From Candidatus Tayloriibacteriota bacterium (GTDB lineage: Bacteria > Patescibacteriota > Minisyncoccia > Phycocordibacterales > PALSA-1337), in contig CAIOGI010000009.1 in assembly GCA_903857825.1 (NCBI GenBank), positions 7,203-71,202 of the forward strand: 64,000 nt of DNA, given 5' to 3'. The first letter of the stretch is position 1. Each line of letters begins with the position of its first letter. Shown here piece after piece: positions 5,234 through 49,315 of this stretch. A program made the translations under genes and the position numbers. The notes below the pieces were generated by a model that worked only from the letters and a program-made list of their open reading frames with translations, did not search any database and was not told where the DNA came from.

Positions 5234-5300
5234 ATCGTGTTCAATTATACAACAATCCCCCGCCCTTATAAAGATGCGGGGGATTGTATATAAAGCCTTA

Positions 5301-7363: not shown

Positions 7364-7366
7364 AAA

Positions 7367-8497: not shown

Positions 8498-8498
8498 A

Positions 8499-10442
8499 AT
8501 GACTAACATCTCCACAATTAACAGAAAATCATATAGAGCATGGATCGTATTTCGTACATACTTTGTTACGCCTTTTTGTCTCACTTCGTTTTCAATTGGT
8601 ATAGGACTTTATATCTATTCTTTTTTTTCAAATTCCTTTATTTGTCCAAGCTGGGTATTAATTATTTCATCGATACTCGGATATATAGCGATCCTTAACC
8701 GCATTCATGATAGATTTAGAATATCACTACTGATCTTCATTTCTTGCTTGTTCTATTTGCTGATAATAATTCTAACTGGGGCTGATGGAGTTTTTCTGAA
8801 AATCACAAACTCAGTTGCATTTTCGGTTATGATTTCCTCTTTGGCTTATCTTTGCATTAGTAAAATTTTTTATCACTCAGAGAATAGTTCAGGTCTTGAG
8901 GCCATCAGTAAAAGTAAGAAGGGTCTATACATATTTCCATGTCTGCTGGTCATCCTAATTTCATTTGGAATATTTATACGTATGAAAGGTGTTGCTTCAC
9001 TTGGTTTTTGGTTCGATGAATCGATTTCAGCGCTAGTGGCACAGCGCATCTCCGGTGGATGGTCGGACACATTCCTATCCGGAATTCATTATGGACGGGG
9101 ACTTTTCTATCACTATATACTTTCCCTATTTACTGGATCATTCGAAAATATATATTTTGCCAGTCGACTAGCTAATGTAGTCTTCTTCATTCCAACAAGT
9201 ATTGTTGTTTATCTCTGGACTAAGAGAATTCGTGGCGAATACGCGGCTACTATAGCCACGAGCATATTTTGCTTAGCACCATTTAATATAGCAATGTTTC
9301 GCGAAGCTAGATTCTATGAATTCTTATCACTACTAGTAATTTTGATTGGATTCTTTTCGTATATTCTCATTGAGAAGATCATTAAACAAAATAAAGGGAA
9401 AATACTGATATCTAAAATTAAAATTGACCTGGAAACTATTTTGCTATTCGCAATGATTGTGGTACTGGGTATCTTAGCATTACAAACTAATGAAATTGTC
9501 GCCTATCTGATTTATTTTCCAATTGTTTTTGGTCTATATATGCTGGTAATCTTTCGAGAAAAATTTGGAATTTATCTTATCCTTTCCTTTTTTTCACTAT
9601 TAATCGCAGCACTGCTTATTAAATATGGTCTAGATTTCAAATATATCTATATATTCAAACAACCACAAATACCATGGAAGGCTTTGACATCAGCAGAAAG
9701 TTTCTCGGCTTTCTTTCACTATTTTCTCAGTATTGCCGATCCATATTTTCGAATCATTATTCCAATCGGCTTTCTATGGATTACGACAAGATTAAAGGAT
9801 TGGAAGGCTCAGTATGTATTCCTGTTTGTGATCTGTATCTACTCAATTATAAGCATACAAGGATATGGATTGGCCGGTTTGAGATATTACTATTTTTTAA
9901 TGCCCTTCGTTGCCATTATTATCGGATTAAGTTTATGGAACCTCTTTTTGTTTTCAAATAATAAAATCGTTAGAATTTTTTCATCATTACTAATTATAAT
10001 GATACTTAGCGGCTATTTTATTGCAGGTATAAAAGAATCTAACGCTGTGGTAAATAGTGATTCAGTTGTTGATATTAAAAACGTTCAGCTAAATGATTCG
10101 TTTGCTTATTTACTTAGCCGGCCAGATATCCAAACATCAACAATCATTTCTGATCTGCATAGTTCAGTTCCATTCTACATTTATTCATCACGTATTCCGG
10201 ATTTCTTAATAGCTGAAGATCCTAAAATCGAACCAAACATTGTTCGTAACGGAAAAGATATATACCTTGGTATGAAAACAATAAACTTCACCGATATCGC
10301 TTCCATAAGTGATCAAAATACTTATGTTATTAACTGGTATTCTCCATCCCTGACTCCTAAAAACATGCAGGAGTTTTTACAAAATAATGGTGAATTAATT
10401 TACAAGCATGGACCAGAACGTATTTATCTTATTAGGAAATGA
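8499..10442 (+). CDS. GT-C fold integral membrane glycosyltransferase-like protein (ArnT/PMT-like)
   Basis: 647 aa and polytopic. GFWFDESISALVAQRISGGW loop. Large C-terminal periplasmic domain. Confidence 0.5.
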   Translation: MTNISTINRKSYRAWIVFRTYFVTPFCLTSFSIGIGLYIYSFFSNSFICPSWVLIISSILGYIAILNRIHDRFRISLLIFISCLFYLLIIILTGADGVFLKITNSVAFSVMISSLAYLCISKIFYHSENSSGLEAISKSKKGLYIFPCLLVILISFGIFIRMKGVASLGFWFDESISALVAQRISGGWSDTFLSGIHYGRGLFYHYILSLFTGSFENIYFASRLANVVFFIPTSIVVYLWTKRIRGEYAATIATSIFCLAPFNIAMFREARFYEFLSLLVILIGFFSYILIEKIIKQNKGKILISKIKIDLETILLFAMIVVLGILALQTNEIVAYLIYFPIVFGLYMLVIFREKFGIYLILSFFSLLIAALLIKYGLDFKYIYIFKQPQIPWKALTSAESFSAFFHYFLSIADPYFRIIIPIGFLWITTRLKDWKAQYVFLFVICIYSIISIQGYGLAGLRYYYFLMPFVAIIIGLSLWNLFLFSNNKIVRIFSSLLIIMILSGYFIAGIKESNAVVNSDSVVDIKNVQLNDSFAYLLSRPDIQTSTIISDLHSSVPFYIYSSRIPDFLIAEDPKIEPNIVRNGKDIYLGMKTINFTDIASISDQNTYVINWYSPSLTPKNMQEFLQNNGELIYKHGPERIYLIRK

Positions 10443-11697
10443 TAGGTGCCTTCACCTCTGATCGAACAAGGGCTTTAATTCTCATGAAATAAATAACTCG
10501 GACAGTTACAAGCATGCATATAGATGCTATCAAAGTTGCGTATATCGGTCCCATATATCCCATAAGACGTAATAATATAATACTGAGAACAACATTAAAA
10601 ATGGCAAGTACGGAATAAAATATCGTCATAATTTTTGCATGGCCAGTGGGAATGATGATACCTAAATCAACTGTTAGGGCAGAAGCATAGAAAACAAAAA
10701 TCATTACTGAAAACGGTAAAATTTGAAATAATAGATCATTGTAATATGCCGGATAAAATTGCTTAACGAAAATAGGAATGAGAAACATGCTTATAGTTCC
10801 GATTGTTACTGCCGCCAACATAGTCAGTAGCGTATATTTTTTTAGATGTGAGTGGATACTTTTATATTCCCCCCGCATATTCAAATGAGTGAAGTTTGGT
10901 GCAATTACCTGGGCCAAGATCGCAAAAGGACCCGATAAAATCATAAAGATGCGATTCAAAAAGTCATAGGTGGCAATTTGGTCAAGATACCCGTAGTGAC
11001 CAAGTAAAACTATATCTGTGCGAGAAAAGATCTGGTAACCAACTGCAGCAACCCCACAAATAAATGAATAGGTGGCAATATTCTTTAGGACAGACCGGTC
11101 TATTCTAAAACTCAATTCTTTATGTGCAATCGCTAGTGCGATAATCAGAATGGAATAAAATACAATTTGGCTTACCATCGCTCCGTATATGCCATATTTC
11201 TGGACTAGAAAATATATAGGAATAACGAAAACAATCCCTATACCCATAGTGATCAGTGATAAATATTTAAATCTTTTTAAACCGCGAAAAATCCCATCAT
11301 AAAGATAGGAGATCGGGATTAGAAATGTGAGAATGACTATGAATAAAACATAACTCACTTGCATATGTAGGATGTATGTATTTATAACAATAAAGCCTAG
11401 TGAGAGCGTGGCTGCTACTGTCGCAATCAGTATAAATGAACTTGCTACAATTGATTTTAGTTTTGTCTGGTCGGTTTTCGAGTACTCAGCGACATACTTA
11501 CTTGTGGCTGTCGATATCCCGAAGTCCCCCACTAACCCAAGTAGAACGGCAATTGATGATACATAGCTATAAAGACCCACCTTCCCAGGATCTACAAGAT
11601 GCGCCACGATGAAGAATATGAATATATTCATTCCTTGTTTTACGATTAATTGCGCACCTCTCCAAATGGAGGATTTGATTATATTATTCATGTTCAT
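10432..11697 (-). CDS. Wzx-like oligosaccharide flippase / polysaccharide biosynthesis protein (MOP superfamily)
   Basis: 12-14 TM helices with a polysacc_synt-like layout. Lies next to the GT genes. Confidence 0.55.
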   Translation of the reverse strand: MNMNNIIKSSIWRGAQLIVKQGMNIFIFFIVAHLVDPGKVGLYSYVSSIAVLLGLVGDFGISTATSKYVAEYSKTDQTKLKSIVASSFILIATVAATLSLGFIVINTYILHMQVSYVLFIVILTFLIPISYLYDGIFRGLKRFKYLSLITMGIGIVFVIPIYFLVQKYGIYGAMVSQIVFYSILIIALAIAHKELSFRIDRSVLKNIATYSFICGVAAVGYQIFSRTDIVLLGHYGYLDQIATYDFLNRIFMILSGPFAILAQVIAPNFTHLNMRGEYKSIHSHLKKYTLLTMLAAVTIGTISMFLIPIFVKQFYPAYYNDLLFQILPFSVMIFVFYASALTVDLGIIIPTGHAKIMTIFYSVLAIFNVVLSIILLRLMGYMGPIYATLIASICMLVTVRVIYFMRIKALVRSEVKAPIIS

Positions 11698-12649
11698 TTT
11701 GGAAATAACGATATGAAATCATCGCTGTGTTAATTGTTACAAGTGACAAAGTGTCCATCCAGGGTTTAACAAGGAAACTTTCAAAAAACATTCCTGTCTC
11801 TATAAATGATTTGGCTGACAGACCAAACACGGCCACAATATATGAGATCAATAGTACATTCGATATAAAGGGGGCAATAAATATAGATACCAATAAAAAT
11901 GCTAGTCCAATCAAGGGAATATTATATTTAAATAGAAGACTAAAAGGGTCCTTCTTGTTATTTTTTATCAGAAAATTTCTTGATCTAGCCCCTTTTATCC
12001 ATACCCTGAATAATTCACCAAACTCTGAACGATTTTTATGCAGCAACTTTGCTTGTGGGTTATATTGAATTAAGTAACCAACTTTTCTTACTCTCTGGCA
12101 TATTTCCTTGTCTTCGGATCGAGGTATCTCAATTGATCCATTCTCAAACTTCTCGAGAAAATATCCAGATTCCTCTAACACAGCTCTCCTTATTGTAAGG
12201 TTGCACCCAGGATATGTTTGGACTTTCCTGGTTTTCAGATATCGGGGATATCCCTCAAACAGAGAAACTCCTAAGTAATCAGATACCCATGTTTTTATCA
12301 TAGGCATAACCATTCCTCCCCCAGCCCCCACATTCGGGTTCCTAAATGTCTCCTCATGATATTTCAGATAGTCTTTGTCTAGTTTTAAGTCTACATCCAA
12401 AAAAACCAGTATTGCTCCTGATGAATTAATTATTCCACAATTTCTTGCCTCAGAAAGTCCTCGTCTTTTTTCAGTTAGCACTTTAATAGGATATTTTGAC
12501 GCAACTTTCAGGGAGTTATCAGTCGAATCATTGTCAACATACACTATTTCATACTGATCTTTTGGGTAATCCTGTACAAGACAGGATTCAATGCACGAAT
12601 CCAAATTTTCTTGTTCATTATATCCACAAATAATTAAGCTGAATTTCAT
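11684..12649 (-). CDS. family 2 glycosyltransferase
   Basis: LIICGYNEQENL...VDNDSTDNS...FLDVDLKL, the GT2 DXD pattern. C-terminal TM segments. Confidence 0.75.
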   Translation of the reverse strand: MKFSLIICGYNEQENLDSCIESCLVQDYPKDQYEIVYVDNDSTDNSLKVASKYPIKVLTEKRRGLSEARNCGIINSSGAILVFLDVDLKLDKDYLKYHEETFRNPNVGAGGGMVMPMIKTWVSDYLGVSLFEGYPRYLKTRKVQTYPGCNLTIRRAVLEESGYFLEKFENGSIEIPRSEDKEICQRVRKVGYLIQYNPQAKLLHKNRSEFGELFRVWIKGARSRNFLIKNNKKDPFSLLFKYNIPLIGLAFLLVSIFIAPFISNVLLISYIVAVFGLSAKSFIETGMFFESFLVKPWMDTLSLVTINTAMISYRYFQNEHE

Positions 12650-13767
12650 AAATATTTACTATATTGCCTCGATATAATTTCTCTGTCATAAAACTTAATC
12701 GCTCTTTGCCGTCCTTCGTCTCCGAGAGCGGATATCCTATTCCAGTCCAAAACTAGAAGATTAATCGTCTTACCGATGGTTTGATCGTTTTCAGGAGGAA
12801 CAACTAATCCTGAACCGTTTATTATTTCCACGCAGCCAGAAGAATTACTTGTAATCACAGCACACCCTGCTAACATTGCCTCAAGTAATACCATTCCAAA
12901 ACTCTCATATTTAGATAAAAGACAAAATATGGCCGCCTGCTCCAATAAATCCTTATATTCTTTTCCATTGTTATCAAGCCAGCCATGAAAAATAATTTTT
13001 GTTTTAGATCTTTCAGCGAGTTGCTTGAGTTCATTCATCATCGGACCGTCGCCCGCTATATGGACTTCCCATTTTATATCTTCGTCTGATACAGCCCTGA
13101 TCAAATGCTGAAAACCTTTACTTCGCAATAATCGTCCTGAAGAAAATATTATTTTCCTTTTCGATTGAGGGTGAAACTTTTCAATATCAATTCCATTGGG
13201 AATTATTATTATTTTTTTACGATCAAACCTAGGATATACCTTTACTATCTTATTTCTAAGAAAGTCTGATGGTGAAATAACAATCTTCGCATTGTCCAAT
13301 ATAATTTTCCATATTTTTACAAGAAATGGATATATCATTTTGAATCTAGAATTATACCCAATAACATCGCTTCCATGAGCCGTTACTATAAATGGCAGAC
13401 CAAACTGTTTTTTAAGTATATATGACAAAATTCCTGTAGGAATGATGAAATGGGAGTGGCAGATATCGTAATAATTTTGCTTAAGCAAACTTCTACACTT
13501 TAAATATCCAAACAGTAAATATGTGAGTTGTTCCCAAGGATGACAGATTTCCTTTCTACTTCGTAGAGACTTTACTCGATAGATTCTAAATGAATCGTTA
13601 ATTTTTTCATACGCCGGCAGGAGCTTATAACTCATAGTGACCACATCGATGTCAAATTCTCCAGTTTCGCTCAATCCTTCAGCAATATCATAAGACACTG
13701 GACTTGCTCCGCCACCTAGAGGCGGAAATTCGTAATTTAGCAGAAGTATCCTTTTCTTGGTTGCCAT
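12646..13767 (-). CDS. family 4 (group 1) glycosyltransferase
   Basis: GT4 C-terminal signature ESFGMVLLEAMLAGCAVITSNSSG... Confidence 0.8.
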   Translation of the reverse strand: MATKKRILLLNYEFPPLGGGASPVSYDIAEGLSETGEFDIDVVTMSYKLLPAYEKINDSFRIYRVKSLRSRKEICHPWEQLTYLLFGYLKCRSLLKQNYYDICHSHFIIPTGILSYILKKQFGLPFIVTAHGSDVIGYNSRFKMIYPFLVKIWKIILDNAKIVISPSDFLRNKIVKVYPRFDRKKIIIIPNGIDIEKFHPQSKRKIIFSSGRLLRSKGFQHLIRAVSDEDIKWEVHIAGDGPMMNELKQLAERSKTKIIFHGWLDNNGKEYKDLLEQAAIFCLLSKYESFGMVLLEAMLAGCAVITSNSSGCVEIINGSGLVVPPENDQTIGKTINLLVLDWNRISALGDEGRQRAIKFYDREIISRQYSKYL

Positions 13768-14705
13768 TATTTTCTTATAATTTCGCGCACATAATAACGC
13801 TTTTCATATGGTGAGTTATTCAGATGAATCCGGATCAGGAAATCCATGATGATACCAAAGCTGAAAAACATGATACCCGCGATAAAGAGAAAAGCTGTGA
13901 GAAAGAACCATCCATTTCTATTGAGGGAAAGTCCAAAAACAACTTTTCCATATATAGTCCAGAAACCGGAGAGGAAACCTACAAAAAAAGAGGCGAGACT
14001 AAGGTATCCGAAAAGATGAAGGGGGCGCTGTGAATATTTCTGGATGAACCAGATCTTTATTAGGTCAATAAAGCCACGAATGGCTTTCGTGCAGTTATAT
14101 TTACTTTTTCCGTTAACCCTGGGTCGATGATTTACTATGATCTCACCTATTCTGAAACCTTTCCATTTCAGGATCGGCAGGATATAGCGATGCATCTCAC
14201 CGCCGATATCAAGACTTTTTGCGGCTTCTCTTTTATAAACACGCAGAGTGCAACCAGTATCATGTACAACGTCTGAGATAATAAGCCGACGCATGAGTCT
14301 TCCCATGCGAGTAAGAATATTTATGCTTCCATTATCCTTTCTTTTCTTGCGCCAACCTGCCACAACATCAAGATCGTCCTGTGTCAGTTTCTCAACAAGT
14401 TTGGGAATATCAGCAGGATCATTTTGTCCGTCTCCATCAAGAGAAATTATGAAATTACCGTCCGCCGCCTTGAAGCCAGCATCCAACGCCACAGCTTGTC
14501 CGTAGTTTCGGTTCAAATTGATTATAGTGACACCGTGAAGGGATTTCAGCTCTCCTAGAGTAGAATCGGTACTTCCATCGTTGATATAGATAATCTCGGA
14601 ATAGCCACGAAGATGGCTCATTGCCGACTTTATTTCACTGTCTAGATTTGTTATGTTTCCTGCTTCGTTAAAGACTGGAACAATGACTGAGTATTCATTT
14701 TTCAT
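13767..14705 (-). CDS. polyprenyl-phosphate sugar synthase (GtrB/DPM1/ArnC-like GT2)
   Basis: SVIVPVFNEAGNI...INDGSTD...LDGDGQND, plus two C-terminal TM helices as in GtrB. Confidence 0.8.
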   Translation of the reverse strand: MKNEYSVIVPVFNEAGNITNLDSEIKSAMSHLRGYSEIIYINDGSTDSTLGELKSLHGVTIINLNRNYGQAVALDAGFKAADGNFIISLDGDGQNDPADIPKLVEKLTQDDLDVVAGWRKKRKDNGSINILTRMGRLMRRLIISDVVHDTGCTLRVYKREAAKSLDIGGEMHRYILPILKWKGFRIGEIIVNHRPRVNGKSKYNCTKAIRGFIDLIKIWFIQKYSQRPLHLFGYLSLASFFVGFLSGFWTIYGKVVFGLSLNRNGWFFLTAFLFIAGIMFFSFGIIMDFLIRIHLNNSPYEKRYYVREIIRK

Positions 14706-14779
14706 GTTTTAAAGTATAACACATAATATATTGGTTGTCTATTTATCGTGACTAAGGCTTTTGATTTTAAATCATCTAC

Positions 14780-15148
14780 TTATTCCAAGTGTAAATATAT
14801 TTTTTGCTCCCGAATTTTTGATGCCTCAGCTAGAGCTGATGAAATTTCATTTAAATGAAGTCGGATCATCTCGTTTGGTATGTGCATTGTATCGAATCCA
14901 CTTTTATGTGAGTAGTAACCACGACTTAAATCAGACACAATTTGCTCGGGGTTTGTAAGATGTTGTATACCATCGACCTCGATATTAATTTTTGCCTTAG
15001 GAATCGCTAGATCTATGTGCTTAAATCCATCATGAAGTTCTACCAAAACACGAACTCCCTTTTCCTCCAGAGCATTTTTTAAATCGGATGCTTCCTTTGT
15101 TGGAGTTCGATATTTTTTTATTATAATTTTCTGATTTGTTTCTTCCAT
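14780..15148 (-). CDS. DUF559 endonuclease-domain protein (Vsr/restriction-endonuclease-like fold)
   Basis: HIDLAIPKAKINIEVDGIQH matches the DUF559 D...E.DG..H core. Confidence 0.5.
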   Translation of the reverse strand: MEETNQKIIIKKYRTPTKEASDLKNALEEKGVRVLVELHDGFKHIDLAIPKAKINIEVDGIQHLTNPEQIVSDLSRGYYSHKSGFDTMHIPNEMIRLHLNEISSALAEASKIREQKIYLHLE

Positions 15149-15191
15149 AATAAATCTATAATTCTTCTGCTAATCTATTAACATTTTTTTA

Positions 15192-15947
15192 TTAATAATT
15201 TGGGTCAGCGGCATTTGCTGCTTTTCTATAATTACAATGATCACAATCCTGAGCTGCAATTGGCATTTTTCCATCAAGACATTTTTTGATATCGAACAAA
15301 GATTTTTCAACCCATGTACTGTCACCAGTATAGGGTAAAATATCTATATCAAAATCTATTTTTGCGTCAAAGGCTTCGCGGTCTGTCTTACCGTTGCAAT
15401 ACACGAAATATCCTGTATTTGAAACTTTGAATCCTGTTTGGCGTAATAGCCACTGATACATTTCCATTTGACGTTTATAACCCATCTGCCATTCTGCATC
15501 GAGAGTCACTTTAGCTGGCTTACTAGTCGCTTTATAGTCTACAACCACAATCTCACCAGTTTTATCTACCCATAGGTCATCTACAGCTCCTGTCATTATA
15601 AAATTCGTTGGCTTATGATGGTATTGAACCCCTTTGAAGTTCTCTCGCCATTCATTGATCTTTTCATGCTTAAAGGGGACCATATCGAGGCTATAAGCCT
15701 TCATTAGGGGGTGTGGAGTCCCCTTCGCTCGATGTATGTCAAACTCCTTCTTTAGAAGAGTATCTACAGCCGAATTTATGGCAAATGGAAATGGTGGAAT
15801 CTGGCCTACCCCAAGTCGACGATCGATATAAAAACATTTGGGGCATTTTGTGTATAGTTCGATTTTTGATCGAGACAATTTGAAAGGCTCCGTGCTTGCC
15901 GGATCATAGAGGTTTCGTATTCTGTTCGCCTTATAATATTCTGACAT
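15192..15947 (-). CDS. Cas4-like PD-(D/E)XK nuclease (DUF83, RecB family) with a four-Cys cluster
   Basis: CPKC at the N-terminus and CDHC at the C-terminus. GAVDDLWVD, VVVDYKAT (D-x-K) and the QxxxY motif KRQMEMYQWLL. Confidence 0.6.
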   Translation of the reverse strand: MSEYYKANRIRNLYDPASTEPFKLSRSKIELYTKCPKCFYIDRRLGVGQIPPFPFAINSAVDTLLKKEFDIHRAKGTPHPLMKAYSLDMVPFKHEKINEWRENFKGVQYHHKPTNFIMTGAVDDLWVDKTGEIVVVDYKATSKPAKVTLDAEWQMGYKRQMEMYQWLLRQTGFKVSNTGYFVYCNGKTDREAFDAKIDFDIDILPYTGDSTWVEKSLFDIKKCLDGKMPIAAQDCDHCNYRKAANAADPNY

Positions 15948-15950
15948 GTT

Positions 15951-16847
15951 TTATAGGCTATACTGGTAAGATTGGCTGATATAGTCAAGTGCTGCAACTA
16001 TTTCTTCAGGTTTCTCTATTCTAAACTTCGTTTCTCCGGTTCCCCAGTGTCCTTTTTGACTTACATCATGTAATTCGATTCCATTCCTCTTGATCCTGTC
16101 TACAGGCATCGTTATGTGAATCCATAATCCTTTTGCCTGAGGAATAATCTCGCAAAAAATATTTTCAATTTTATAACTGATATATAGTTTGGTAAACTTT
16201 TCCTCTATGTTGGTATCGAGTTCAAAAATCTTCTCTTTTAGTTGATCATAAAGTTCTCGACTTTCTTTCCAACTATCACGAAATAAATGATTTATCGTGT
16301 ATTCTTTTCCGTATTCCCGGACAGGTTTTTCATCGTCTTCACTTACTAGTTTCTTTGATCCACTTAGTTTGAATCCCTTCTGAAAGTTTTCTACATCAAC
16401 CGAAAGAAGGTCGTCATAGAGACGATATTTTAGAAGCTCGATTGTGAACGGCAAAAACTTCACAAGTCCAAGATCAAATTTGTTATAACTTTCAGCTACA
16501 CAAATGACTCGAGGAGATGACCAATCAACTATTATCTCCAGTTTTTTAGCTTGAACAAGTTTTTCAAACTTCTCCTTATGATCAAGAAGCCATTCAAGAT
16601 ACCATGTAGCTTGATTTATTACAGAATCATTCTGAGTACGCTTATATTCAATTATAACGGGAGATCCATTTTGATCAATTCCGATTGTATCGATTCTACC
16701 TTCATTGGTAGTGAACTCAGTATCAAGAAAATAAATACCTAGAATCTCCTTCAGGTTTTCCTCTATTAATCGTTGAATGTCTCGTTCAACAACGCTTCGC
16801 TTTTCGATCTTCACCGCTTTATTATTTTGTATTTTGAATAGAGGCAT
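15951..16847 (-). CDS. NucS/DUF91-like PD-(D/E)XK nuclease domain protein with C-terminal extension
   Basis: GRIDTIGIDQNGSPVIIEYKRTQNDSVINQATWYLEWL parallels the NucS motif G.IDILA.D..G.LVVIELKR...Q..RY..W. Confidence 0.45.
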   Translation of the reverse strand: MPLFKIQNNKAVKIEKRSVVERDIQRLIEENLKEILGIYFLDTEFTTNEGRIDTIGIDQNGSPVIIEYKRTQNDSVINQATWYLEWLLDHKEKFEKLVQAKKLEIIVDWSSPRVICVAESYNKFDLGLVKFLPFTIELLKYRLYDDLLSVDVENFQKGFKLSGSKKLVSEDDEKPVREYGKEYTINHLFRDSWKESRELYDQLKEKIFELDTNIEEKFTKLYISYKIENIFCEIIPQAKGLWIHITMPVDRIKRNGIELHDVSQKGHWGTGETKFRIEKPEEIVAALDYISQSYQYSL

Positions 16848-16940
16848 ACAATGTGGATGTTCTCAATATGATAACATGCGAAAAGAATTAATTGAAGGCC
16901 TGATATAGATTTCGAACCGTAACTCTGATATAATTATTTA

Positions 16941-18323
16941 ATGAAAAATATCTGGCTTCTCACCGAAGAACGACCTAAAAACGATGTCATTCTCACTATT
17001 TTGAATAAGGTCGGGACAGACAATAATTTTAAAGTTCAATCTGAGGGTGCGAAGGTTATACCTATTATGAAAGATGGTTGTTTTACTTTTTTATACAAAG
17101 TTGAAGATGTTAAATGCGAAGGATTTGAAAATATATTTATTAAAATAGCCAGTGGTAATTCTAGCTTCGTCGATTTTTTGATATTTCTCCAAGAAGCAGA
17201 GCCTGATCAAAGTTCAAAACCTCTCTATGCAATAGAAGAAACGAAAACCGATGATTCAGAATCTCGTAACACAGGAGTCTACCAACGCTGTAGTAAGTTT
17301 GTATATGTAGAATTCTATTATCCGGGCATTAGGAAAATAATGCTCTACAGTTTGCAGATCAAGCAAAAAATAAAACCAACAGTAACCAATATTTTCGGCA
17401 CACGAATGCTACGAACGATAGGCGTTGAAATTCTTGGCAAAACATTTGATGAGGAAGTCATGAGACCATTCACGAGCCTCGATGAGCTAGTTCAAGCAAA
17501 GAGTGCTATGAGAATGCCCCCGACCGGTAATGTCCCTATTCAAATCGAGGTGCACCCTGACAAAATCACAGTATCAGGAAGGCTTTTTAAAGCTGGTGGG
17601 ATAGGCCATGACCCTAATATCGGCGCACTCACCATCATAGCTCTCTGTATTAGACGTTGGGAAAAAGAAAAGCCAATCATCATAACCAAACATGGTTTAT
17701 CTCAAGAACATCTTGGAAGAGGAAACAAATTTATTCAGATCGCCAACAGGCTCAATATCGGGCTTGATGGTTTAAATGTCCAAATTGCAACTCAACATGA
17801 GCTTTATTGGCATTATGAAATGTCCCAAGAAAAGCTAGCCACTATATTTCTCCACGTCCTATTACTCAATTACACGAAAGCAGAAGTCATCTATGCCAAC
17901 CATGGAGGCACGGAGAGAGGATACTTTATGCACAAAGTTCAGGGACCGATCGTGATTGAGAAATATCAAGAAGGAAAACGAGCCGCATATAAGCTTGGCG
18001 ACAAATCTCTGATTATTCACTTACCAGACATGATCATTTTTGATACTGCTAGAAATCAGATCATCAATGTCGAGGGTAAAAAGTATAGTACACGAGCAGC
18101 TGGTATCGAGGAGTTGGCAAACTATTCCTACATTGAAGAAAAAGTGATTCTACCTTCACATAGTCCTTCGGCTTTTATCAGGACCGTTGTTGTTTTTGGT
18201 AGCAAAGAAACTGAACTTAAGGAAAAAGAGATCGGATTTATGCTAAATGAAAATGGAGATCTTGTGTTGGGTAAATATGCTCCTGAAATATTTAAAGAAG
18301 TAGTATCAAAAGCTACAGCCTAG
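16941..18323 (+). CDS. candidate type II restriction endonuclease (context only)
   Basis: 460-aa ORF convergent with the adjacent adenine MTase and overlapping it tail-to-tail by 4 nt. No conserved motif; this is the usual R-M layout. Confidence 0.3.
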   Translation: MKNIWLLTEERPKNDVILTILNKVGTDNNFKVQSEGAKVIPIMKDGCFTFLYKVEDVKCEGFENIFIKIASGNSSFVDFLIFLQEAEPDQSSKPLYAIEETKTDDSESRNTGVYQRCSKFVYVEFYYPGIRKIMLYSLQIKQKIKPTVTNIFGTRMLRTIGVEILGKTFDEEVMRPFTSLDELVQAKSAMRMPPTGNVPIQIEVHPDKITVSGRLFKAGGIGHDPNIGALTIIALCIRRWEKEKPIIITKHGLSQEHLGRGNKFIQIANRLNIGLDGLNVQIATQHELYWHYEMSQEKLATIFLHVLLLNYTKAEVIYANHGGTERGYFMHKVQGPIVIEKYQEGKRAAYKLGDKSLIIHLPDMIIFDTARNQIINVEGKKYSTRAAGIEELANYSYIEEKVILPSHSPSAFIRTVVVFGSKETELKEKEIGFMLNENGDLVLGKYAPEIFKEVVSKATA

Positions 18324-19441
18324 GCCTCTTGTAACGCCAAGTCTTTTTTCTTTAGCTTCCCCACCCTTTTATTTCCAACCTGAGAATTCTCTAGAATATA
18401 TAATTGCTCCTGAATAGTTTTCATATGCTTCGAGTCTCCGTTGCTATTGCTTTTAAACCTGAGGTAATCAATATTCTGCAATGTTACTCGTCCATACTTC
18501 TCTAGAGTTGCAATGATATCTTTCTCAGGCATTGCACCTTCAGAATTGTAGCTCAAAATCAGATAGCGGTATTTAGCTGTTTTTGCCACCTTATCTAAGG
18601 CAAGAAGTGCTGTATTTTTATTACAAAAATCAGATTTTTGATTCTTGTAATCTCTCATTCCTGTTACACCCTTAATCGCAGGACTGTCGTATCGTGCGAT
18701 TGTTTCCAAGAGATGATAGTTCGGTGCATATTGCCGATGGTTATAAGGAGGATCCATATAGAGTATGTCTACATCTAAATCTTCCACTAGATCCATACTG
18801 TTCCTGTTGAACACAGTATGCTCTTTGTCGCCTGAATAAAAACTCATTTCTTTAATTTGAAGCGGCTTTAACGCTCTAGGGTCATACTCCTTAAGAAAAG
18901 CTGCATAGACACCTGAAATATTTGCATAGAAAGGTACACTTTCAATAAGAGAAGCGAGAAGTACAAAATACTCATTTTCATTTATTAATTTTTCTTTCCA
19001 CCATTCTTCTATCAAAAGTCTTATAGCATCAATCTTCTTACCATTCTCGGGTAGAAAGAATTTTCTTTTATGTTCCTGATCCTTAGTTCCTTCATCAGTA
19101 TAATTTTTGTAAATAAAACCTTTAACACCTTTCAATTCGTTCAAATAACTTCTTACAGAATCAAAAGGAGAAGCAAAAAGAATGTTCGATGAGACATCAA
19201 GTGTTTTCAGCAGTTTTTTAAACTCAGGTTCACCATTATTTTCTATATAAGCTTTTTGGAGTACATAAGAAAAATAGAGTAAATCAGAAGACACAATCTC
19301 AAATCCTTTTTCCTTAAAGAATCTTCCAACATTTGAAGTACCAGAAAAGAAATCGCAAAAAACCCCATCTTTTACGCCAGTCGAGGTTACGGCTTGGTAG
19401 ATTCGATCCAGCAATTTTTCTTTGTTGCCAATAAATCTCAT
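18320..19441 (-). CDS. N6-adenine DNA methyltransferase, D12/alpha class
   Basis: Motif X RFIGNKEKLL, motif I FFSGTSNVG, motif IV YMDPPY. Confidence 0.75.
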   Translation of the reverse strand: MRFIGNKEKLLDRIYQAVTSTGVKDGVFCDFFSGTSNVGRFFKEKGFEIVSSDLLYFSYVLQKAYIENNGEPEFKKLLKTLDVSSNILFASPFDSVRSYLNELKGVKGFIYKNYTDEGTKDQEHKRKFFLPENGKKIDAIRLLIEEWWKEKLINENEYFVLLASLIESVPFYANISGVYAAFLKEYDPRALKPLQIKEMSFYSGDKEHTVFNRNSMDLVEDLDVDILYMDPPYNHRQYAPNYHLLETIARYDSPAIKGVTGMRDYKNQKSDFCNKNTALLALDKVAKTAKYRYLILSYNSEGAMPEKDIIATLEKYGRVTLQNIDYLRFKSNSNGDSKHMKTIQEQLYILENSQVGNKRVGKLKKKDLALQEA

Positions 19442-19442
19442 A

Positions 19443-21008
19443 TTAATAGTTTGTGATTAACAGCTCTGCCACCTTGCCGCGCTGATCTTTTTTACTATTC
19501 AAAGTTCGACCAGAGAAAACTTGCTGAATTTTATAACCCTTATAAAGATCCCGAATGAATTCACAATCTGAATTGGAGAGCATCACTTTACAGCCCTTCT
19601 TATCCAAATGATCAATTTTTTCCTTCAGTCTTATTTGATCCTCTTTATGGAATTTCTCTTTAGTATAACGAGTGAAATCAGAATAAACTGATATAGGATA
19701 GTAAGGAGGATCGAGATAAACAAAATCATTAGTGCCAGCATCATTTACCGCCATCTCAAAATCTACTTCTTTTATTGCCACATTTTTTAGAACCGCACTA
19801 GCACTTCTGATTGTATGTTCATCACATATAAGCCGATTGAGAGAGCTGCCTATTGGTACATTAAACTGCCCTTTTTGATTGACCCTATAGATACCATTAA
19901 AACAGGTCTGATTTAGATAAATCATTCTTGCAGCAATTTCAGCTGAATTCAATTTTTGGAAAATATCAATTTCCCGATCTAAATTTCTTACTAAAGGATA
20001 TAATTCTTTTGAGTGTTTTGATCGTAACTCCTTAAGCAGTCTGATCACTTCTTCTGGATTGTCTCGTATACCCTCATACGCCCTGATCAATTCAGTATTG
20101 TTGTCGGCCAGAATCGCCTTTTGAGGTTGGAGATGGAAAAACATTGCCCCTCCACCGAGAAAAGGTTCGTAGTAAGAATTGAATTTTTTAGGTAGAAACT
20201 GTTCGTATTGAGAAATCATCCCTCTCTTGCCTCCTACCCATTGAAGAAAAGGTGTTGCCTTCTCATCTGGTGAAGAATTTGTCTCTCTTTTTACATTTGC
20301 AGTCAGAGGCATGCGTTTCAATAATTTCGTCAATTCGCTTTCATGCGTGTGTACTGATTCAAGCTCTCTAATAATTTTTACAACTACGCCTCTGATCTCA
20401 ACTTCAGTTCTAAAAAAAGGAAGTAGGTTTTGATTTGCCGGTTGCAAACGGAATCTCCCCTTTTCCTTGTAAATCTTTTTTAAGGTTGCCTGATTATCAT
20501 CAATAATTGCGACTACAGTTTGACCATCTTCTGCACTTTGCTGTTCTCGTATAACGACAATATCACCATCAAATATTCCATCATCGATCATGCTGCTTCC
20601 AGCCACCTTTAAAGCGTAGTGCTTTCCTGCATTGGGTATTTCACCCTGAGACAGTACCAACATCTCACCGTGCCTTTCTACTGCTTCAATAGGCAATCCG
20701 GCAGCAATAGTACCTAGAATTGGGACATGAACACTGCCAAGAGCCTTTTTAGGGGCAACAGCTCGAGGTTGATTGATCTCTTTATAAATCAAGCCAGCTT
20801 CCTCAAGTTTTTTTACATGATGATGAGCTGTAGATACCGAAGAAAGTTTTAAATGTCCTTTTATTTCTTCAAGAGAAGGGGCGAACCCATGCTTTTTACT
20901 ATAGGTAGTAAGAAAATCTAATGTCTGTTTTTGTCTTTTAGTTATCATATTACACTTTCGATTTATTTTCGATATCATAATTATAGCGCCACCTAAATTA
21001 AGAAGCAA
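19443..21008 (-). CDS. LexA-like autocleavable repressor (wHTH + S24 peptidase) fused to a Dam-type GATC adenine methyltransferase
   Basis: N-terminal half: MITKRQKQTLDFL..., cleavage site IAAGLP, GSSM (Ser nucleophile), ATLKK (Lys). C-terminal half: FLQWVGGK, FLGGGAMFF, FVYLDPPY, collinear with E. coli Dam. The likely true start is the ATG at 20948 (MITKRQ). Confidence 0.75.
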   Translation of the reverse strand: MLLNLGGAIIMISKINRKCNMITKRQKQTLDFLTTYSKKHGFAPSLEEIKGHLKLSSVSTAHHHVKKLEEAGLIYKEINQPRAVAPKKALGSVHVPILGTIAAGLPIEAVERHGEMLVLSQGEIPNAGKHYALKVAGSSMIDDGIFDGDIVVIREQQSAEDGQTVVAIIDDNQATLKKIYKEKGRFRLQPANQNLLPFFRTEVEIRGVVVKIIRELESVHTHESELTKLLKRMPLTANVKRETNSSPDEKATPFLQWVGGKRGMISQYEQFLPKKFNSYYEPFLGGGAMFFHLQPQKAILADNNTELIRAYEGIRDNPEEVIRLLKELRSKHSKELYPLVRNLDREIDIFQKLNSAEIAARMIYLNQTCFNGIYRVNQKGQFNVPIGSSLNRLICDEHTIRSASAVLKNVAIKEVDFEMAVNDAGTNDFVYLDPPYYPISVYSDFTRYTKEKFHKEDQIRLKEKIDHLDKKGCKVMLSNSDCEFIRDLYKGYKIQQVFSGRTLNSKKDQRGKVAELLITNY

Positions 21009-45638: not shown

Positions 45639-45998
45639 TTAGATTCCCTTTCCCTCTACCGCTTCATTAGCAAAATGGTTTTTAAGGAACTGATCTACAA
45701 GTTCACGCTTTCCTTTGCTACCTATGTGCCAAGTTGTAATCTCACAAATTGGCTGATCACTTTTGTATTCGTAGATTGTGACAATGGTTGGTTTTTTCAC
45801 ACCTCCAGTTTTGAAAGCCCATTCAACACGAACTTTACCGTCACCAGATTTCCACTCACCTTCTTGCGTGCAGTCATGTGGCTCTCCAAACTTTTCGACA
45901 AGCTGTTCATATGTAGCTTTTATGTAGCAGTAGAAACCAGATCCCCATACTTCCTTAAATTTAGCTTTTGCGAATTTAGAGTTAATTTTCATAATCAT
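45639..45998 (-). CDS. hypothetical protein (first gene inside the prophage boundary)
   Basis: 119-aa ORF. Confidence 0.35.
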   Translation of the reverse strand: MIMKINSKFAKAKFKEVWGSGFYCYIKATYEQLVEKFGEPHDCTQEGEWKSGDGKVRVEWAFKTGGVKKPTIVTIYEYKSDQPICEITTWHIGSKGKRELVDQFLKNHFANEAVEGKGI

Positions 45999-46102: not shown

Positions 46103-46177
46103 CTAGACTAATCTACCCGCAGCAATGACATGATTTACGAGGGTGTATGTGTACCCCATTTCATCAATATGCCACGT
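46103..46177 (-). pseudogene. displaced GAPDH C-terminal fragment B
   Basis: Translates to TWHIDEMGYTYTLVNHVIAAGRLV*. Shares taccccatttcat with the gap 3' end. Abuts the stop of ORF 46177-46515. Confidence 0.65.
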
Positions 46178-46515
46178 CAATCTCCATCATATTTTTTATC
46201 GTACTTTCGCGAACCGAAGATCGTAATTAGAATTGGAATTAAAATTAATATCCACGTCCATGAGTCTATGGCTCTAATTGTAAGTTTTTCAACATTGCAA
46301 ACTACTCCACCATAATAACCACAAGGTGATCCTTTGATCATGAACAATATATTTGTGTGAAAGAAATTATCAGTAACATAGAAGATTCCCACCAAAACGA
46401 TTCCAACTGTCATAACAACTGATATGCAGTAAGTAATAAAACCAAGAAAGCTCAAAGAAAAAATCCACTTTATTAGCTTTTTTGTTGGATCACTATTATT
46501 TGTTTTCATATTCAT
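46177..46515 (-). CDS. small integral membrane protein (112 aa), cargo of module 2
   Basis: Three predicted TM helices. Its start lies 6 nt after the stop of fragment C. Confidence 0.45.
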   Translation of the reverse strand: MNMKTNNSDPTKKLIKWIFSLSFLGFITYCISVVMTVGIVLVGIFYVTDNFFHTNILFMIKGSPCGYYGGVVCNVEKLTIRAIDSWTWILILIPILITIFGSRKYDKKYDGD

Positions 46516-46521
46516 TGATTA

Positions 46522-46572
46522 TTAAACTACCCTCCCCGCCTTCACCACATGCTCCACCAACATATTCGTATA
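46522..46572 (-). pseudogene. displaced GAPDH C-terminal fragment C (17 codons)
   Basis: YTNMLVEHVVKAGRVV**. Nucleotides 46531-46572 are ~95% identical to 546-587 of fragment A. Confidence 0.6.
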
Positions 46573-46705
46573 CTTTACATAATTATTATAACACTTAATT
46601 CTAATGTTTCTAATATCATCATGAAAATATATGCTTAATACATGTGGGAATTTATGATTATTTTGTTTCAAAGAATTAGCAAATTATATACAAACACTTT
46701 AAAAA

Positions 46706-47149
46706 CTATTTTAGACTAGTGGTTAAATAACACCTAAAAACATGTTGCTCAATAACACTAAGGTGAAGATAAATATTACCAACACCCCAAGATTGAGATT
46801 TTTCATTTAATTCATTCTCGGTTTCTATTTCCGAAGGTTTGCCAAAAATTTTAATGAGATGCTCTGACACTTTATCAAATCCAGACAATGAGAGCTTGTC
46901 CTCCCACAAACCCTCTGGGTTCAATCCAATGTACGCAGTGATTGATTTAAAAGATTCGTCCTTTGCTATTCCATTATCCGAATAAAGAGGATACTCCAAT
47001 CCCTGTAAGTAAGTTACAGAATTCCAGGAGTACCTGTCTCCAAACCAAATTCCACCAGTATCTTTCGCTAATTCATTTAATGGCTTCCCCCATTCTAAAA
47101 TAATATCGGGTTTTTCTAAAGGAAAACCTTTTAAAAAAGGATTATTCAT
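46706..47149 (-). CDS. hypothetical protein (147 aa), cargo of module 3
   Basis: Clean ORF with no recognisable domain. Its start lies 5 nt after the stop of fragment D. Confidence 0.4.
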   Translation of the reverse strand: MNNPFLKGFPLEKPDIILEWGKPLNELAKDTGGIWFGDRYSWNSVTYLQGLEYPLYSDNGIAKDESFKSITAYIGLNPEGLWEDKLSLSGFDKVSEHLIKIFGKPSEIETENELNEKSQSWGVGNIYLHLSVIEQHVFRCYLTTSLK

Positions 47150-47154
47150 TGTAT

Positions 47155-47241
47155 TTATTTAACAAGTTCATTAGTTCCTATTACACACCTCACCAATGTA
47201 CGGGTGTACCCCATCTCATTGTCGTACCAAGCCAGCTTCAT
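47155..47241 (-). pseudogene. displaced GAPDH C-terminal fragment D
   Basis: MKLAWYDNEMGYTRTLVRCVIGTNELVK*. Differs from the intact gene at synonymous positions (GAC/GAT, GAG/GAA), so it is a diverged mimic, not a recent duplicate. Confidence 0.65.
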
Positions 47242-47351
47242 GGACTTATTATATCACAATCTTAGAAAAAACATCCCGCGCTCACCTCTTCCAAACTCGA
47301 TAGTTCAAGTGCAAACCAATCATAAATCCACCCCTGACGAATAGCAAGGAG

Positions 47352-48026
47352 TTAGGCTTTGGGTGTATAAGTTATCTGCTGCCATATTTCCGTCATTTTG
47401 GGCATATTAAATGTTATACTCTTCTGCTGCTTATTCCAATTTTTGTTCCACTCATCGATTGACACGCTGAAAACTTTTTGAATAATTGCATCCTCATCAC
47501 CTTCCATTTTTACTCTCAAACTAACACCATTAAAAGTCACGGTCCCATCGTAATAAATGCTTCCAATTTTTTCTCCCCATTTTCCTTCTGATACCCATGT
47601 AGTAATATTTGCAGACCAATCCACTATAAACCCTTCCGAACTATACTTCTTAAAGGAAATATCATTGCCAGTGAGACATCCATCAAGATCATTACCTAAG
47701 ACACCTTCCCAATAAAAGCGATAATCATCTTTAAAAGGATCCTTCCAAGTTTCTACACAATGAACACCCACAAGATTATGAATTGAAGAAAACTTTTCAA
47801 AATTTTCTAAAACAGGAAACATGAGGTTTGGTGCAGCAAAACCATCTTCACCAGAGTTTTTTGAAATATCAACACCTATTGTTCCCTGTGCATAATTGTT
47901 ATAATTTGACCCATATTCCTCCCAAGTTCCCGTGTGTATGAATATAGATAATTGAGCTTTTGAGGATTCAAAAGTTCCGTTGATTTCTTTGCTGTATGGG
48001 TAATCTTGAATTTTGAAAGTATTCAT
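47352..48026 (-). CDS. hypothetical protein (224 aa), cargo of module 4, immediately downstream of gap
   Basis: Clean ORF starting 4 nt after the gap stop. No recognisable domain. Confidence 0.4.
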   Translation of the reverse strand: MNTFKIQDYPYSKEINGTFESSKAQLSIFIHTGTWEEYGSNYNNYAQGTIGVDISKNSGEDGFAAPNLMFPVLENFEKFSSIHNLVGVHCVETWKDPFKDDYRFYWEGVLGNDLDGCLTGNDISFKKYSSEGFIVDWSANITTWVSEGKWGEKIGSIYYDGTVTFNGVSLRVKMEGDEDAIIQKVFSVSIDEWNKNWNKQQKSITFNMPKMTEIWQQITYTPKA

Positions 48027-48029: not shown

Positions 48030-49022
48030 CTAAATTAGTTTTCCTGCTTCAATTACGTGTCTAACCAACGTATTCGTATACCCCATTTCATTATCGTACC
48101 AAGCCAATACCTTTACCAAATTCCCCCCAACTACTCGTGTAAACGCAAGATCTGCAATAGATGCATGCAGATTACCCTTTATATCTGAAGAAACCAAATC
48201 TTCTTCTGTAACTGTAAATATACCTTTCCAACGTGCTTCACTGGCAGCTTTCTTTAGGATTGCATTTACTTCTTCTGTTGTTGTATTTTTCTTTGAAATG
48301 AAAGTAATATCCACAATAGAACCTGTAACAACTGGAACTCGTATAGAAATACCATCAAAAAGTCCATTCAAGCTAGTCATAATCTTCGTGACAGCGATAG
48401 CTGCACCAGTCGATGAAGGAACTATGTTCTGAGCAGCTGCACGGCCTTCTCGCATGTCCTTCTTGCTTGGACCATCAACTATAGCTTGGCTGGCTGTATA
48501 GGCATGTACAGTGTTTAATAAAGCTTTTTCTACGCCAATAGCTTCATCAAGAATAGCAAGCAGAGGACTTCCAGCGTTTGTGGTACATGAGGCATTTGAT
48601 GAAATCTGACATGTGCTAAGTTTCTCCTCATTCATTGCCATTAAAACAGTTTCACCCTTTATAACTGAAGCTGGATCATCTTTTAATGGAGCTGTAACGA
48701 CAACTCTCTTTGCGCCAGCAGTGATATGAGCTTGTGCTTTATCACTAGATGTAAACAAACCAGTTGATTCAACAACAACATCAACACCAAGATCACCCCA
48801 AGGAAGTTTTGTTGGATCTTTTTCACTTAAATATTTCACTCCTTCTAATGTGCAGTCGCTCTTTCCATAAACTGAATCGTATTTTAATAGATAATTTACA
48901 TTTTCTAGAGATGTTAAATCATTTACAGCAATAACTTCTATATTTTCATTTTGCTTTGCTAATTTATAAAAAGCACGTCCTATGCGGCCGAAGCCATTAA
49001 TTGCTACTTTAATTTTTTTCAT
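48030..49022 (-). CDS. gap: glyceraldehyde-3-phosphate dehydrogenase
   Basis: NGFGRIGR NAD-binding motif, active site SNASCTTN, C-terminal WYDNEMGYTN. Confidence 0.95.
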   Translation of the reverse strand: MKKIKVAINGFGRIGRAFYKLAKQNENIEVIAVNDLTSLENVNYLLKYDSVYGKSDCTLEGVKYLSEKDPTKLPWGDLGVDVVVESTGLFTSSDKAQAHITAGAKRVVVTAPLKDDPASVIKGETVLMAMNEEKLSTCQISSNASCTTNAGSPLLAILDEAIGVEKALLNTVHAYTASQAIVDGPSKKDMREGRAAAQNIVPSSTGAAIAVTKIMTSLNGLFDGISIRVPVVTGSIVDITFISKKNTTTEEVNAILKKAASEARWKGIFTVTEEDLVSSDIKGNLHASIADLAFTRVVGGNLVKVLAWYDNEMGYTNTLVRHVIEAGKLI

Positions 49023-49315
49023 AAGAAAGGAATTATATTAAAATCAGATGTAGATGCAAAATATCCTAACAAGAATACCGTCATTATAGTTAGCAGTAAA
49101 TTGGTTATGCCCCAAACATAATTTCTTTGTTTAAATGATTTTATACTAAAAATAATTGAAAAAATTATTAAAATTGGTAAAAATACAATAGAAAATAATA
49201 TAAGTAAAATAATTACGATTACATATATACTATTATGAACTAATATAAAACGAACAAATAAAGTAATACAAGACCAAATCACAAAAGAAACTAATGGTAT
49301 TTTAAAATTTGTCAT
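49019..49315 (-). CDS. small polytopic membrane protein
   Basis: 98 aa with three hydrophobic helices. Overlaps the gap start by 4 nt. Confidence 0.3.
   Translation of the reverse strand: MTNFKIPLVSFVIWSCITLFVRFILVHNSIYVIVIILLILFSIVFLPILIIFSIIFSIKSFKQRNYVWGITNLLLTIMTVFLLGYFASTSDFNIIPFL

Follow-up and report, generated by a model that had tools for sequence, protein, structure and literature searches.

Displaced gap tails delimit three one-gene modules and a prophage in a Patescibacteria genome

Tandem tails behind gap

The stretch analysed here (the window: 64,000 nt of contig CAIOGI010000009.1, assembly GCA_903857825.1, from a Candidatus Tayloriibacteriota bacterium of the candidate phyla radiation, CPR) carries the glyceraldehyde-3-phosphate dehydrogenase (GAPDH) gene, gap, and behind it three inserts of one gene apiece and a prophage of 45 kb, all of them delimited by residual copies of the final ~75 bases of gap. 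We refer to such copies as tails, to the displaced ones as frag1 to frag4, and to each insert with its tail as a module. All features of the array lie on the minus strand, in the order gap, ORF1, frag1, ORF2, frag2, ORF3, frag3, terminator, prophage, integrase, frag4, where ORF stands for open reading frame.

The gap gene (330 aa, 48030-49022 in the ORF list; Pfam Gp_dh_N and Gp_dh_C are recorded for an identical product) ends in the current functional tail, its last ~78 nt (48107-48030), which is the attB-type target. Module 1 comprises ORF1 (224 aa, 47352-48026, ORF list), the remnant of a phage-type P arm at its right end (47236-47351, recognized by Smith-Waterman comparison with integrase-linked P arms) and frag1 (47235-47155, about the last 26 codons of gap, reading LAWYDNEMGYTRTLVRCVIGTNELVK up to the stop). 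A candidate leaderless mini-ORF, MKLAWYDNEMGYTRTLVRCVIGTNELVK up to its stop, runs through frag1 (47155-47241). Module 2 has as cargo ORF2 (147 aa, soluble, 46706-47149, ORF list), followed by the truncated frag2 (46590-46522, or 46522-46593 with an extended -10 motif included), which ends in KYTNMLVEHVVKAGRVV and a stop. In module 3, ORF3 (46177-46515) encodes a small membrane protein of 112 aa with two conserved Cys residues, and frag3 (46103-46180, LTWHIDEMGYTYTLVNHVIAAGRLV and a stop) doubles as the attL of the prophage.

The tails are supported by tblastn within the window (E-values of 1.6e-6 for frag1, 2e-3 for frag2 and 8.6e-6 for frag3) and by nhmmer with a profile built from 76 Paceibacteria gap tails (1.2e-11, 8.7e-4 and 7.9e-10, respectively). 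Stop-to-ATG spacers are short throughout: 3 nt between gap and ORF1, 5 nt between frag1 and ORF2, and 6 nt between frag2 and ORF3. Behind frag3, on what corresponds to the P' side of the phage, folding reveals an intrinsic terminator (46070-46041; 11-bp stem and U run, -18.6 kcal/mol, z -2.5) that is kept in the attP of IMG/VR phages and in the relative L004; there is no terminator between gap and 46070. A preliminary description of the locus had proposed just these elements, namely three recombinase-less one-ORF modules bounded by GAPDH-tail fragments, very small spacing from fragment stop to ORF start, and a terminator only after the third fragment, and all of them are borne out. Its statement that each ORF ends in a tail fragment has to be corrected, for ORF1 and ORF2 both stop 115 nt ahead of the next tail and only ORF3 overlaps its tail, by 4 nt. 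To the three tails that it listed we add frag4 (630-547), which lies beside the integrase gene and closes the prophage, so that the array spans about 47.5 kb.

The array is not an assembly artefact, since it recurs without polymorphism, at 100% identity, in eleven contigs from several public samples. No Rfam RNA family matches the sites and there is no tRNA in the region.

Cargo genes of the modules

The three proteins matched nothing recognizable in the preliminary description, and the database searches agree: no significant match was obtained for ORF1-3 in Pfam (including E up to 1), PADLOC, PHROGs, NCBIfam or the PDB (sequence and profile), and no recombinase domain was found in them by Pfam, NCBIfam and other profile searches. 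With respect to cis-mobilizable elements (CIMEs), then, the content of each module is one ORF of 112-224 aa and no recombinase domain. AlphaFold2 models were unusable for both ORF1 (pLDDT 32, from a single sequence) and ORF2 (pLDDT 42, from two sequences). All three are nonetheless real genes, as their dN/dS ratios indicate purifying selection (0.25 for ORF1, 0.19 for ORF2, 0.11-0.25 for ORF3); their function is presumably accessory. The GC content of the cargo is host-like (0.31-0.35), compared with 0.45 in the prophage.

A word-seeded search with ORF1 retrieved only ORF1 itself, and a full phmmer search retrieved five relatives, the best at 43% identity (E 1.5e-30) and situated between two gap tails on L102. 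The family conserves the motifs SGEDGxPAP and GND. A distant relative, P0009 (32% identical), occurs on a contig of a different kind (L109:972-7089), in a run of at least seven unannotated genes of 146-324 aa beside a gene for a Por_Secre_tail protein. This layout is reminiscent of immunity-gene arrays and may offer a lead on the function of ORF1. ORF2 has one homologue, 64% identical, in L081, where it also sits behind a truncated tail in a gap array.

Homologues of ORF3 were found in L087 (71% identical), L090/L093 (65%) and L120 (45%), all of them with a start codon 1-6 nt behind a tail. On the far side of the homologue, L087 and L120 have another tail immediately and L090 has one beyond a 64-aa ORF. 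The positions of these homologues in their arrays are first, third, and first behind a prophage. Synonymous divergence from L087 is 0.45 for ORF3 (bootstrap 0.33-0.58), compared with 0.63 for gap, 0.77 for pyrD and 0.76 for the cupin gene, which hints that the ORF3 cassette may be younger than the split of its hosts, although one small gene makes this weak evidence.

The prophage, its integrase and its att sites

The integrated element, prophage and cargo region together, occupies 631-46040, as judged from Pfam matches of the neighbouring genes, PHROGs, PADLOC, the GC profile and homology to IMG/VR phages. Its first prophage gene, p119 (45639-45998), is followed by replication, methylase, portal and tail genes, and the gene for a 330-aa Xer-like tyrosine integrase (976-1968; Pfam PF00589 with E 1.4e-24, and PF02899) lies at the far end. 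The integrase consists of a SAM-like N domain and a catalytic domain, with no arm-binding domain. It matches the NCBIfam XerA, XerC and XerD models over its own full length, below their cut-offs; the integron-integrase models give 43.7 bits against a cut-off of 265 (TIGR02249) and 24 bits against 435 (NF011946). Displaced tail frag4 (nhmmer 1.2e-7, with a 1-nt insertion) lies 346 nt downstream of the integrase, within an attR (520-660) composed of a putative P-arm promoter, a mini-ORF and the tail. The same arrangement of integrase and tail is seen in relatives: 13 of them combine at least 50% integrase identity with a downstream flank of more than 600 nt, and in 10 of these 13 a gap tail lies 350-700 nt beyond the integrase gene. 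The integrase is followed by a tail and, 3 nt on, by rpiB in L121, and by a tail, a 129-aa ORF and rpiB in L106 and L114.

The attP of free phages could be read from IMG/VR contigs (L085, L086 and L105; also L116), with the order integrase, 79-aa helix-turn-helix (HTH) gene, arm of ~190 nt, gap tail, terminator and p119. A scan of IMG/VR with the single integrase sequence had given no match; an integrase alignment and p119 did find relatives, and it was p119 that led to these contigs, whose integrase is 54% identical to that of the window. The window is 82-84% identical in DNA to the IMG/VR phage contigs from 46164 downward, a point inside frag3, and the part of frag3 from there on (YTYTLVNHVIAAGRLV and the stop) is phage-derived. 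In L004 it is the working gap gene that ends in this phage tail (YTYTLVNHVIAAGRLV and stop, identical to the frag3 of the window), followed by the terminator and phage genes (L004:10950-11180). Integration thus swaps the phage tail onto gap and displaces the old one, and the C-terminal helix of GAPDH, a core glycolytic enzyme, is accordingly of phage origin in lysogens as a matter of routine. For the phage we also considered an exchange at the stop codon, which would have left the host tail in place, and rejected it, since the functional gap of L004 carries the phage tail.

The gap tail in phage attP and the tail replacement in L004 point to an array that arose by serial site-specific integration into the last ~75 nt of gap, leaving CIME-like or cassette remnants behind, and we consider this the probable origin.

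Two further observations concern the integrase end of the element. (i) The part of the window from ~2000 to 21000, within the bounds set by frag3 and frag4, has host-like GC (0.34-0.39) and encodes a restriction-modification system and other cargo: a type II restriction enzyme (16941-18323), a PMT_2 glycosyltransferase, a CAP-domain protein and two DNA methyltransferases, of which one (19443-21008) has a CI/UmuD-like repressor domain fused to it. Phage conservation at this end is seen only for the integrase and a 338-aa gene (2356-3372). The region may be a cargo island within the prophage or a second element lacking att sites of its own. (ii) The integrase stop is directly followed by a perfect TGTTATAAT and, 6 nt beyond that motif, by the start of a basic 47-aa ORF (809-952, minus strand, beginning VKNKAAQQLGRKGGSTTIRKYGKKHF); relatives have in this position an HTH protein of 62-79 aa, possibly an excisionase or a regulator.

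The gap/rpiB hotspot in relatives

The closest GAPDH relatives, 88-91% identical, come from metagenome-assembled genomes of uncultured Paceibacteria/Parcubacteria. Where both gap and rpiB were visible (63 loci), the two are separated by at most 40 nt in 22, often by -4 to +9 nt, while the remainder have 0.06-4 kb inserted. Direct succession of gap and rpiB with tight spacing is thus the native state, and the inserts found elsewhere make the gap/rpiB junction an insertion hotspot across the class. The modules sit at an integration hotspot that is real and is used by a prophage with a tyrosine integrase, and the survey of relatives that had been suggested did turn up different cassettes at the same position behind gap.

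Extra tails in other genomes share the strand of gap and invariably come after it. There is one in each of L001, L023, L035, L068 and L087, two in L081 and in L102, three to four in L008, where AbiEii genes are included, and four in L090/L093, with PemK and Fic genes nearby; L120 also has four, in an array behind a prophage attR. The array of L081 reads gap, an AdoMet_dc gene, tail, a reverse ORF, P arm, truncated tail and the ORF2 homologue. In L120 we found a module without any gene (L120:5086-5404), consisting of a gap tail, a GC-rich terminator hairpin, ~200 nt of non-coding DNA and a P-arm remnant ahead of the next tail; this remnant is almost identical to the arm of module 1 in the window. 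Most arrays have no integrase within 10 kb. Cassette content differs between genomes whose GAPDH is 84-91% identical, and the cargo is mostly unique: few families recur among the 285 ORFs from these intervals, namely small membrane proteins with a YWLRGG motif (six copies in four arrays and genomes, with the same junction geometry), a MazG-like family of 100 aa, and the ORF3 family.

These comparisons bear on one alternative, that ORF1-3 are native, vertically inherited genes of a gap operon and that the tails come from slippage, from homologous recombination with transformed DNA, or from chance. ORF3 homologues are indeed syntenic downstream of gap in L087 and L093, as is the ORF2 homologue in L081, and the tight stop-to-start spacing is also that of native gap and rpiB. 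However, throughout the class it is rpiB that natively adjoins gap, and the nearest relatives (L087, L001 and L002) have neither ORF1 nor ORF2. Homologues of ORF2 and ORF3 do lie behind gap in relatives without the prophage, but with tail fragments beside them there too, so that the refuting case named in the preliminary description, conserved syntenic host genes in relatives lacking both prophage and fragments, did not arise. In addition, the tails are statistically secure, they all begin on the left near TGGTA and point the same way, and phage attP and attR sites with the same tail and a linked integrase are documented. We regard native inheritance as largely refuted and very improbable.

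On the other side of gap, pyrD and gap are separated by a very AT-rich ORF for a 98-aa membrane protein (49019-49315, minus strand; GC 0.21, GC3 0.13), which shares 4 nt (ATGA) with the start of gap. In the closest relative, L087, pyrD abuts gap and the ORF is missing; it looks like a separate insertion, upstream of gap.

Module types and core sequences

The modules are of two types. Six independent att sites linked to an integrase have a P arm with homology to the 115-nt spacer between ORF1 and frag1 (Smith-Waterman z 12.6-20.9 versus shuffles), which marks module 1 as CIME-like. Aligned to phage attP, its arm shows internal deletions and keeps only the right half of the inverted repeat. The arm is that of the L116 integrase subclade (54% identical to the window integrase) and not that of the resident prophage; the same arm precedes the ORF2 homologue in L081. 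In module 1 the gap core and frag1 both keep ATGGGGTA, with the P arm present. Modules 2 and 3, like many cassettes elsewhere, have no arm and consist of an ORF filling the space between two tails. P-arm homology had been suggested for them by eye and was dropped as not significant. Of the readings in the preliminary description, that of CIME-like or heavily decayed elements is thus right for module 1 (z 12-21 for its arm), while modules 2 and 3 show no trace of derivation from a full element by deletion. For modules 2 and 3 we infer instead that ORF-plus-site units were propagated as such, since the ORF3 and YWLRGG families recur with both junctions conserved. Their copies in the window are probably now fixed, given the truncation of frag2 and the invariance of the population.

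The displaced tails are copies of gap coding sequence, all with the same orientation and a left boundary near TGGTA. ATGGGGTA is intact in gap, frag1, frag3 and frag4, and frag3 and frag4 have the 13-bp ATGAAATGGGGTA in common. The left half of the core (GAAATGGGG), the half that carries ATGGGGTA, is missing from frag2. Folding of the attC kind was sought in single-stranded DNA, on the top strand of all four sites and on the bottom strand of the gap tail and frag1, and was not found (z -0.9 to +1.0 versus shuffles).

Pure decay could also produce such modules: they would be leftovers of full elements, with the ORFs as surviving end genes (morons) that were never mobile mini-units. The arm of module 1, with its deletions and half-lost inverted repeat, fits this account, as do the gutted, gene-less module of L120 (tail, terminator and P arm), the truncation of frag2 and of tail fB in L081, and the fixation of the array in its population; CIMEs are moreover decay products by definition (PMC5704250). 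Decay explains less well that modules 2 and 3 and many cassettes elsewhere have neither P arm nor P' terminator, or that ORFs exactly fill the space between tails (starting 2-12 nt after a stop and ending abutted to a tail), a geometry that random deletions should not repeat. Nor does it sit well with the ORF3 and YWLRGG families, whose place in the array varies from genome to genome with both junctions conserved, with cargo GC that is host-like and not phage-like, with a synonymous divergence of ORF3 below that of flanking host genes, or with IMG/VR phages that gave no relatives of ORF1 or ORF3. We hold decay as the whole explanation to be possible but rather doubtful.

At the opposite extreme would be an active, integron-like platform, in which one-gene circles of less than 1 kb are captured and excised at gap by an Xer-like integrase that the resident prophage or an infecting phage provides in trans, the cassette nearest to gap being the coupled one. 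Cassettes of 0.4-0.9 kb with one ORF and one site are what such a platform should contain, and arrays fit insertion at the gap-proximal site; a two-domain integrase without an arm-binding domain could make do with a short site, and ATGGGGTA is intact in gap and three of the four displaced tails. Cassettes have turned over among genomes with GAPDH 84-91% identical, and ORF3 looks younger than host divergence. Yet the array does not vary among the 11 contigs, which come from several samples, frag2 has lost part of its sequence, orthologous cassettes share only 45-71% identity and reveal no recent transfer, most arrays lack an integrase within 10 kb, the arm of module 1 matches another integrase subclade, and there is neither IntI nor attC-like folding. 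A platform active in this sense seems unlikely. Mobilization of the modules by the resident integrase, which the preliminary description had raised, also appears weakened by two of these points, the missing left half of the core in frag2 and the foreign subclade of the module 1 arm.

Expression signals

Perfect extended -10 motifs precede two of the cargo genes. That upstream of ORF2 (TGATATAAT, 47256-47248) lies within the P arm of module 1, and 6 nt after it comes the ATG of the frag1 mini-ORF, whose stop is 5 nt before ORF2. That upstream of ORF3 (TGTTATAAT, 46593-46585) lies in frag2, ~65 nt before ORF3; in L093 the tail before the ORF3 homologue, orthologous to frag2, carries TGGTATAAT. 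At attR, the putative promoter TGTTAAAAT (660-652) precedes a leaderless mini-ORF (645-520) that runs through frag4 and whose TGA stop overlaps the start codon (ATG, 523-521) of the next host gene. At each of the 13 P-arm, attP or attR sites examined the tail is in frame with an ATG, and at 10 of the 13 TGNTANAAT ends 6-9 nt before this mini-ORF ATG.

The geometry is not peculiar to the att sites. Of 20 TGNTA[ACT]AAT motifs in the window, 10 are 6-8 nt upstream of a start codon (examples of leaderless-geometry motifs are at 16926, 51568, 53176, 56342 and 58463), which suggests that leaderless mRNAs may be the usual promoter-start architecture in this CPR organism. A generic promoter and terminator scan was abandoned in favour of the geometry of TGNTANAAT relative to ATG, as it returned 26 promoter-like sites compared with 21.5 expected in shuffles and missed the real terminator.

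ORF2 and ORF3 probably have promoters of their own, and with these leaderless-type motifs they would not depend solely on the gap promoter. The earlier suggestion that the cargo rides on the gap promoter is accordingly plausible for ORF1 only. The element would appear to restore both transcription and translational coupling to the genes that it splits from gap. How a tail might come to serve as a promoter can also be seen in part: the gap coding stretch TGGTATGATAAT (encoding W-Y-D-N; e.g. L081:764-790 and L087:9919-9945) is one substitution away from a perfect extended -10, and displaced copies have changed to TGTTATAAT (frag2 of the window) and TGGTATAAT (L093), so that a displaced tail can readily become the promoter of the next cassette.

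A model for the array

The first steps of serial integration can be read from the sequences. Temperate phages with an Xer-like tyrosine integrase carry an attP made of P arm, gap-tail copy and terminator. Upon integration the phage's tail copy becomes the working end of gap, and the old tail, together with the gene coupled to it, moves to the far junction. Repeated integrations would stack units of a tail, 2-12 nt and an ORF. Module 1 would be a CIME-type derivative of such an element, and modules 2 and 3 minimal cassettes of one ORF and one ~75-nt site, which most likely spread in the past as ORF-plus-site units, in cis or with an integrase acting in trans. ORF1 would be read through from gap, and ORF2 and ORF3 from leaderless-type promoters in the P arm or tail. 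The P-arm promoter and the in-frame mini-ORF, running through the displaced tail to the old stop, would re-create the coupling of the downstream gene.

Several points weigh against this account or narrow it. The left flanks of frag2 and frag3 have no significant similarity to the P arm. With half of its core missing, frag2 leaves modules 2 and 3 not separately excisable there at present. The gutted scar in L120 tells us that plain internal deletion of full elements does happen. Scans of IMG/VR phage contigs with family alignments of ORF1 and ORF3 gave no match. The window, L087 and L001 have almost the same functional tail, yet a different gene stands behind it in each; if the tail strictly travels with its cargo, this requires cassette exchange among close relatives or gene conversion. 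None of the 11 population contigs, all identical, is a variant missing a module or the prophage, and neither excision nor circles nor empty sites are directly attested. Finally, the proposals on promoters and coupling are drawn from sequence motifs only.

A more ambitious version of serial integration would make this a Paceibacteria system of cassettes serviced by phages, integron-like in layout and distinct in mechanism: circles of less than 1 kb, with an ORF and a ~75-nt gap tail, would be captured at the 3' end of gap by Xer-like integrases of phages, in trans or in cis, coupled to gap and later pushed outward by newcomers, and a promoter and start codon in the att arm would make a leader mini-ORF of each displaced tail and so keep the downstream genes coupled and expressed. 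We offer this tentatively and with some scepticism.

CPR bacteria have tiny genomes in which few mobile elements have been characterized, and the locus presents a concrete route by which they may gain and shuffle accessory genes. The gap/rpiB junction serves as one hotspot for a family of temperate phages, and the cassettes elsewhere include AbiEii, PemK, Fic and small membrane proteins. Two aspects go beyond textbook tandem integration: many units are cut down to one ORF and a site, giving integron-like geometry without an integron, and the att arm seems to bring along a promoter and a mini-ORF, which would undo the polar effect of integration on a translationally coupled operon. If this is right, the integrase and its att site would constitute a defined pair for CPR bacteria, where genetic tools are scarce, and gap-tail repeats could be used in metagenomes as a marker of phage hosts and past lysogeny.

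Comparison with known systems

The nearest precedents are of several kinds. Tandem accretion involving CIMEs is described for elements related to ICESt1 and ICESt3 at the 3' end of fda in Streptococcus thermophilus, as summarized in PMC5704250 (citing Pavlovic 2004 and Bellanger 2011). As there, a glycolytic gene has, at its 3' end, units without an integrase that lie between att sites and are lined up with a functional integrative element, and module 1 keeps an arm of the element's type. Unlike the fda CIMEs, the partner here is a temperate phage and not an integrative and conjugative element, a unit holds a single ORF and measures 0.4-0.9 kb, two of the three lack a recognizable arm, and the host belongs to the CPR.

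In Dehalococcoides, tandem islands are delimited by more than a dozen direct repeats of the 3' end of ssrA; 15 of the islands have no integration module and have been proposed to be CIMEs (PMC3146451). Both loci stack direct repeats of the 3' end of a single-copy gene downstream of that gene. The ssrA arrays differ in their tmRNA target, 20-bp repeat, serine recombinase and multi-kb islands with rdhA cargo (PMC3146451). At gap, by contrast, the site is a ~75-nt stretch of protein-coding sequence that has to leave GAPDH working, with an Xer-like integrase and one gene per cassette.

Replacement of the 3' end itself is known from e14 and phage 21 at Escherichia coli icd, where the prophage supplies a new end and the displaced pseudo-3' fragment is found at the distal junction, according to the account in PMC6379469 (citing Hill 1989). 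Likewise, a tail copy from attP becomes the functional end of gap (L004), and a displaced fragment lies beside a tyrosine integrase; the icd case has a single element and a single pseudo-fragment, in contrast to a multi-cassette array. We know of no report of an att-borne promoter or mini-ORF at icd.

With integrons the locus shares single-ORF, promoterless-looking cassettes with one site each, placed by a strongly expressed position, and it fits a newest-nearest order. It is not an integron, having no IntI-type integrase and no attC-type folding: the only integrase is Xer-like and 45 kb away, the sites resemble gap coding sequence, a housekeeping gene serves as the platform in place of attI, and the cassettes appear to bring or receive their own promoters. 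Integrative mobile elements exploiting Xer (IMEX), e.g. the CTX/TLC arrays in Vibrio, make use of Xer at dif. They too lack a recombinase, rely on one of Xer type whose gene lies elsewhere, and accumulate in tandem at a single site; here the site is the 3' coding end of gap and not dif, all repeats are gap tails, and the only candidate recombinase identified is encoded by a phage.

A limited literature search for gap-targeting elements in Patescibacteria found nothing relevant, which is weak evidence of novelty. Taken together, tandem accretion with CIMEs, arrays of the ssrA kind and 3'-end replacement are known, while the gap-tail site, single-ORF cassettes of less than 1 kb, recurrence across a CPR class, and a putative att-arm promoter with its mini-ORF set this locus apart from them.

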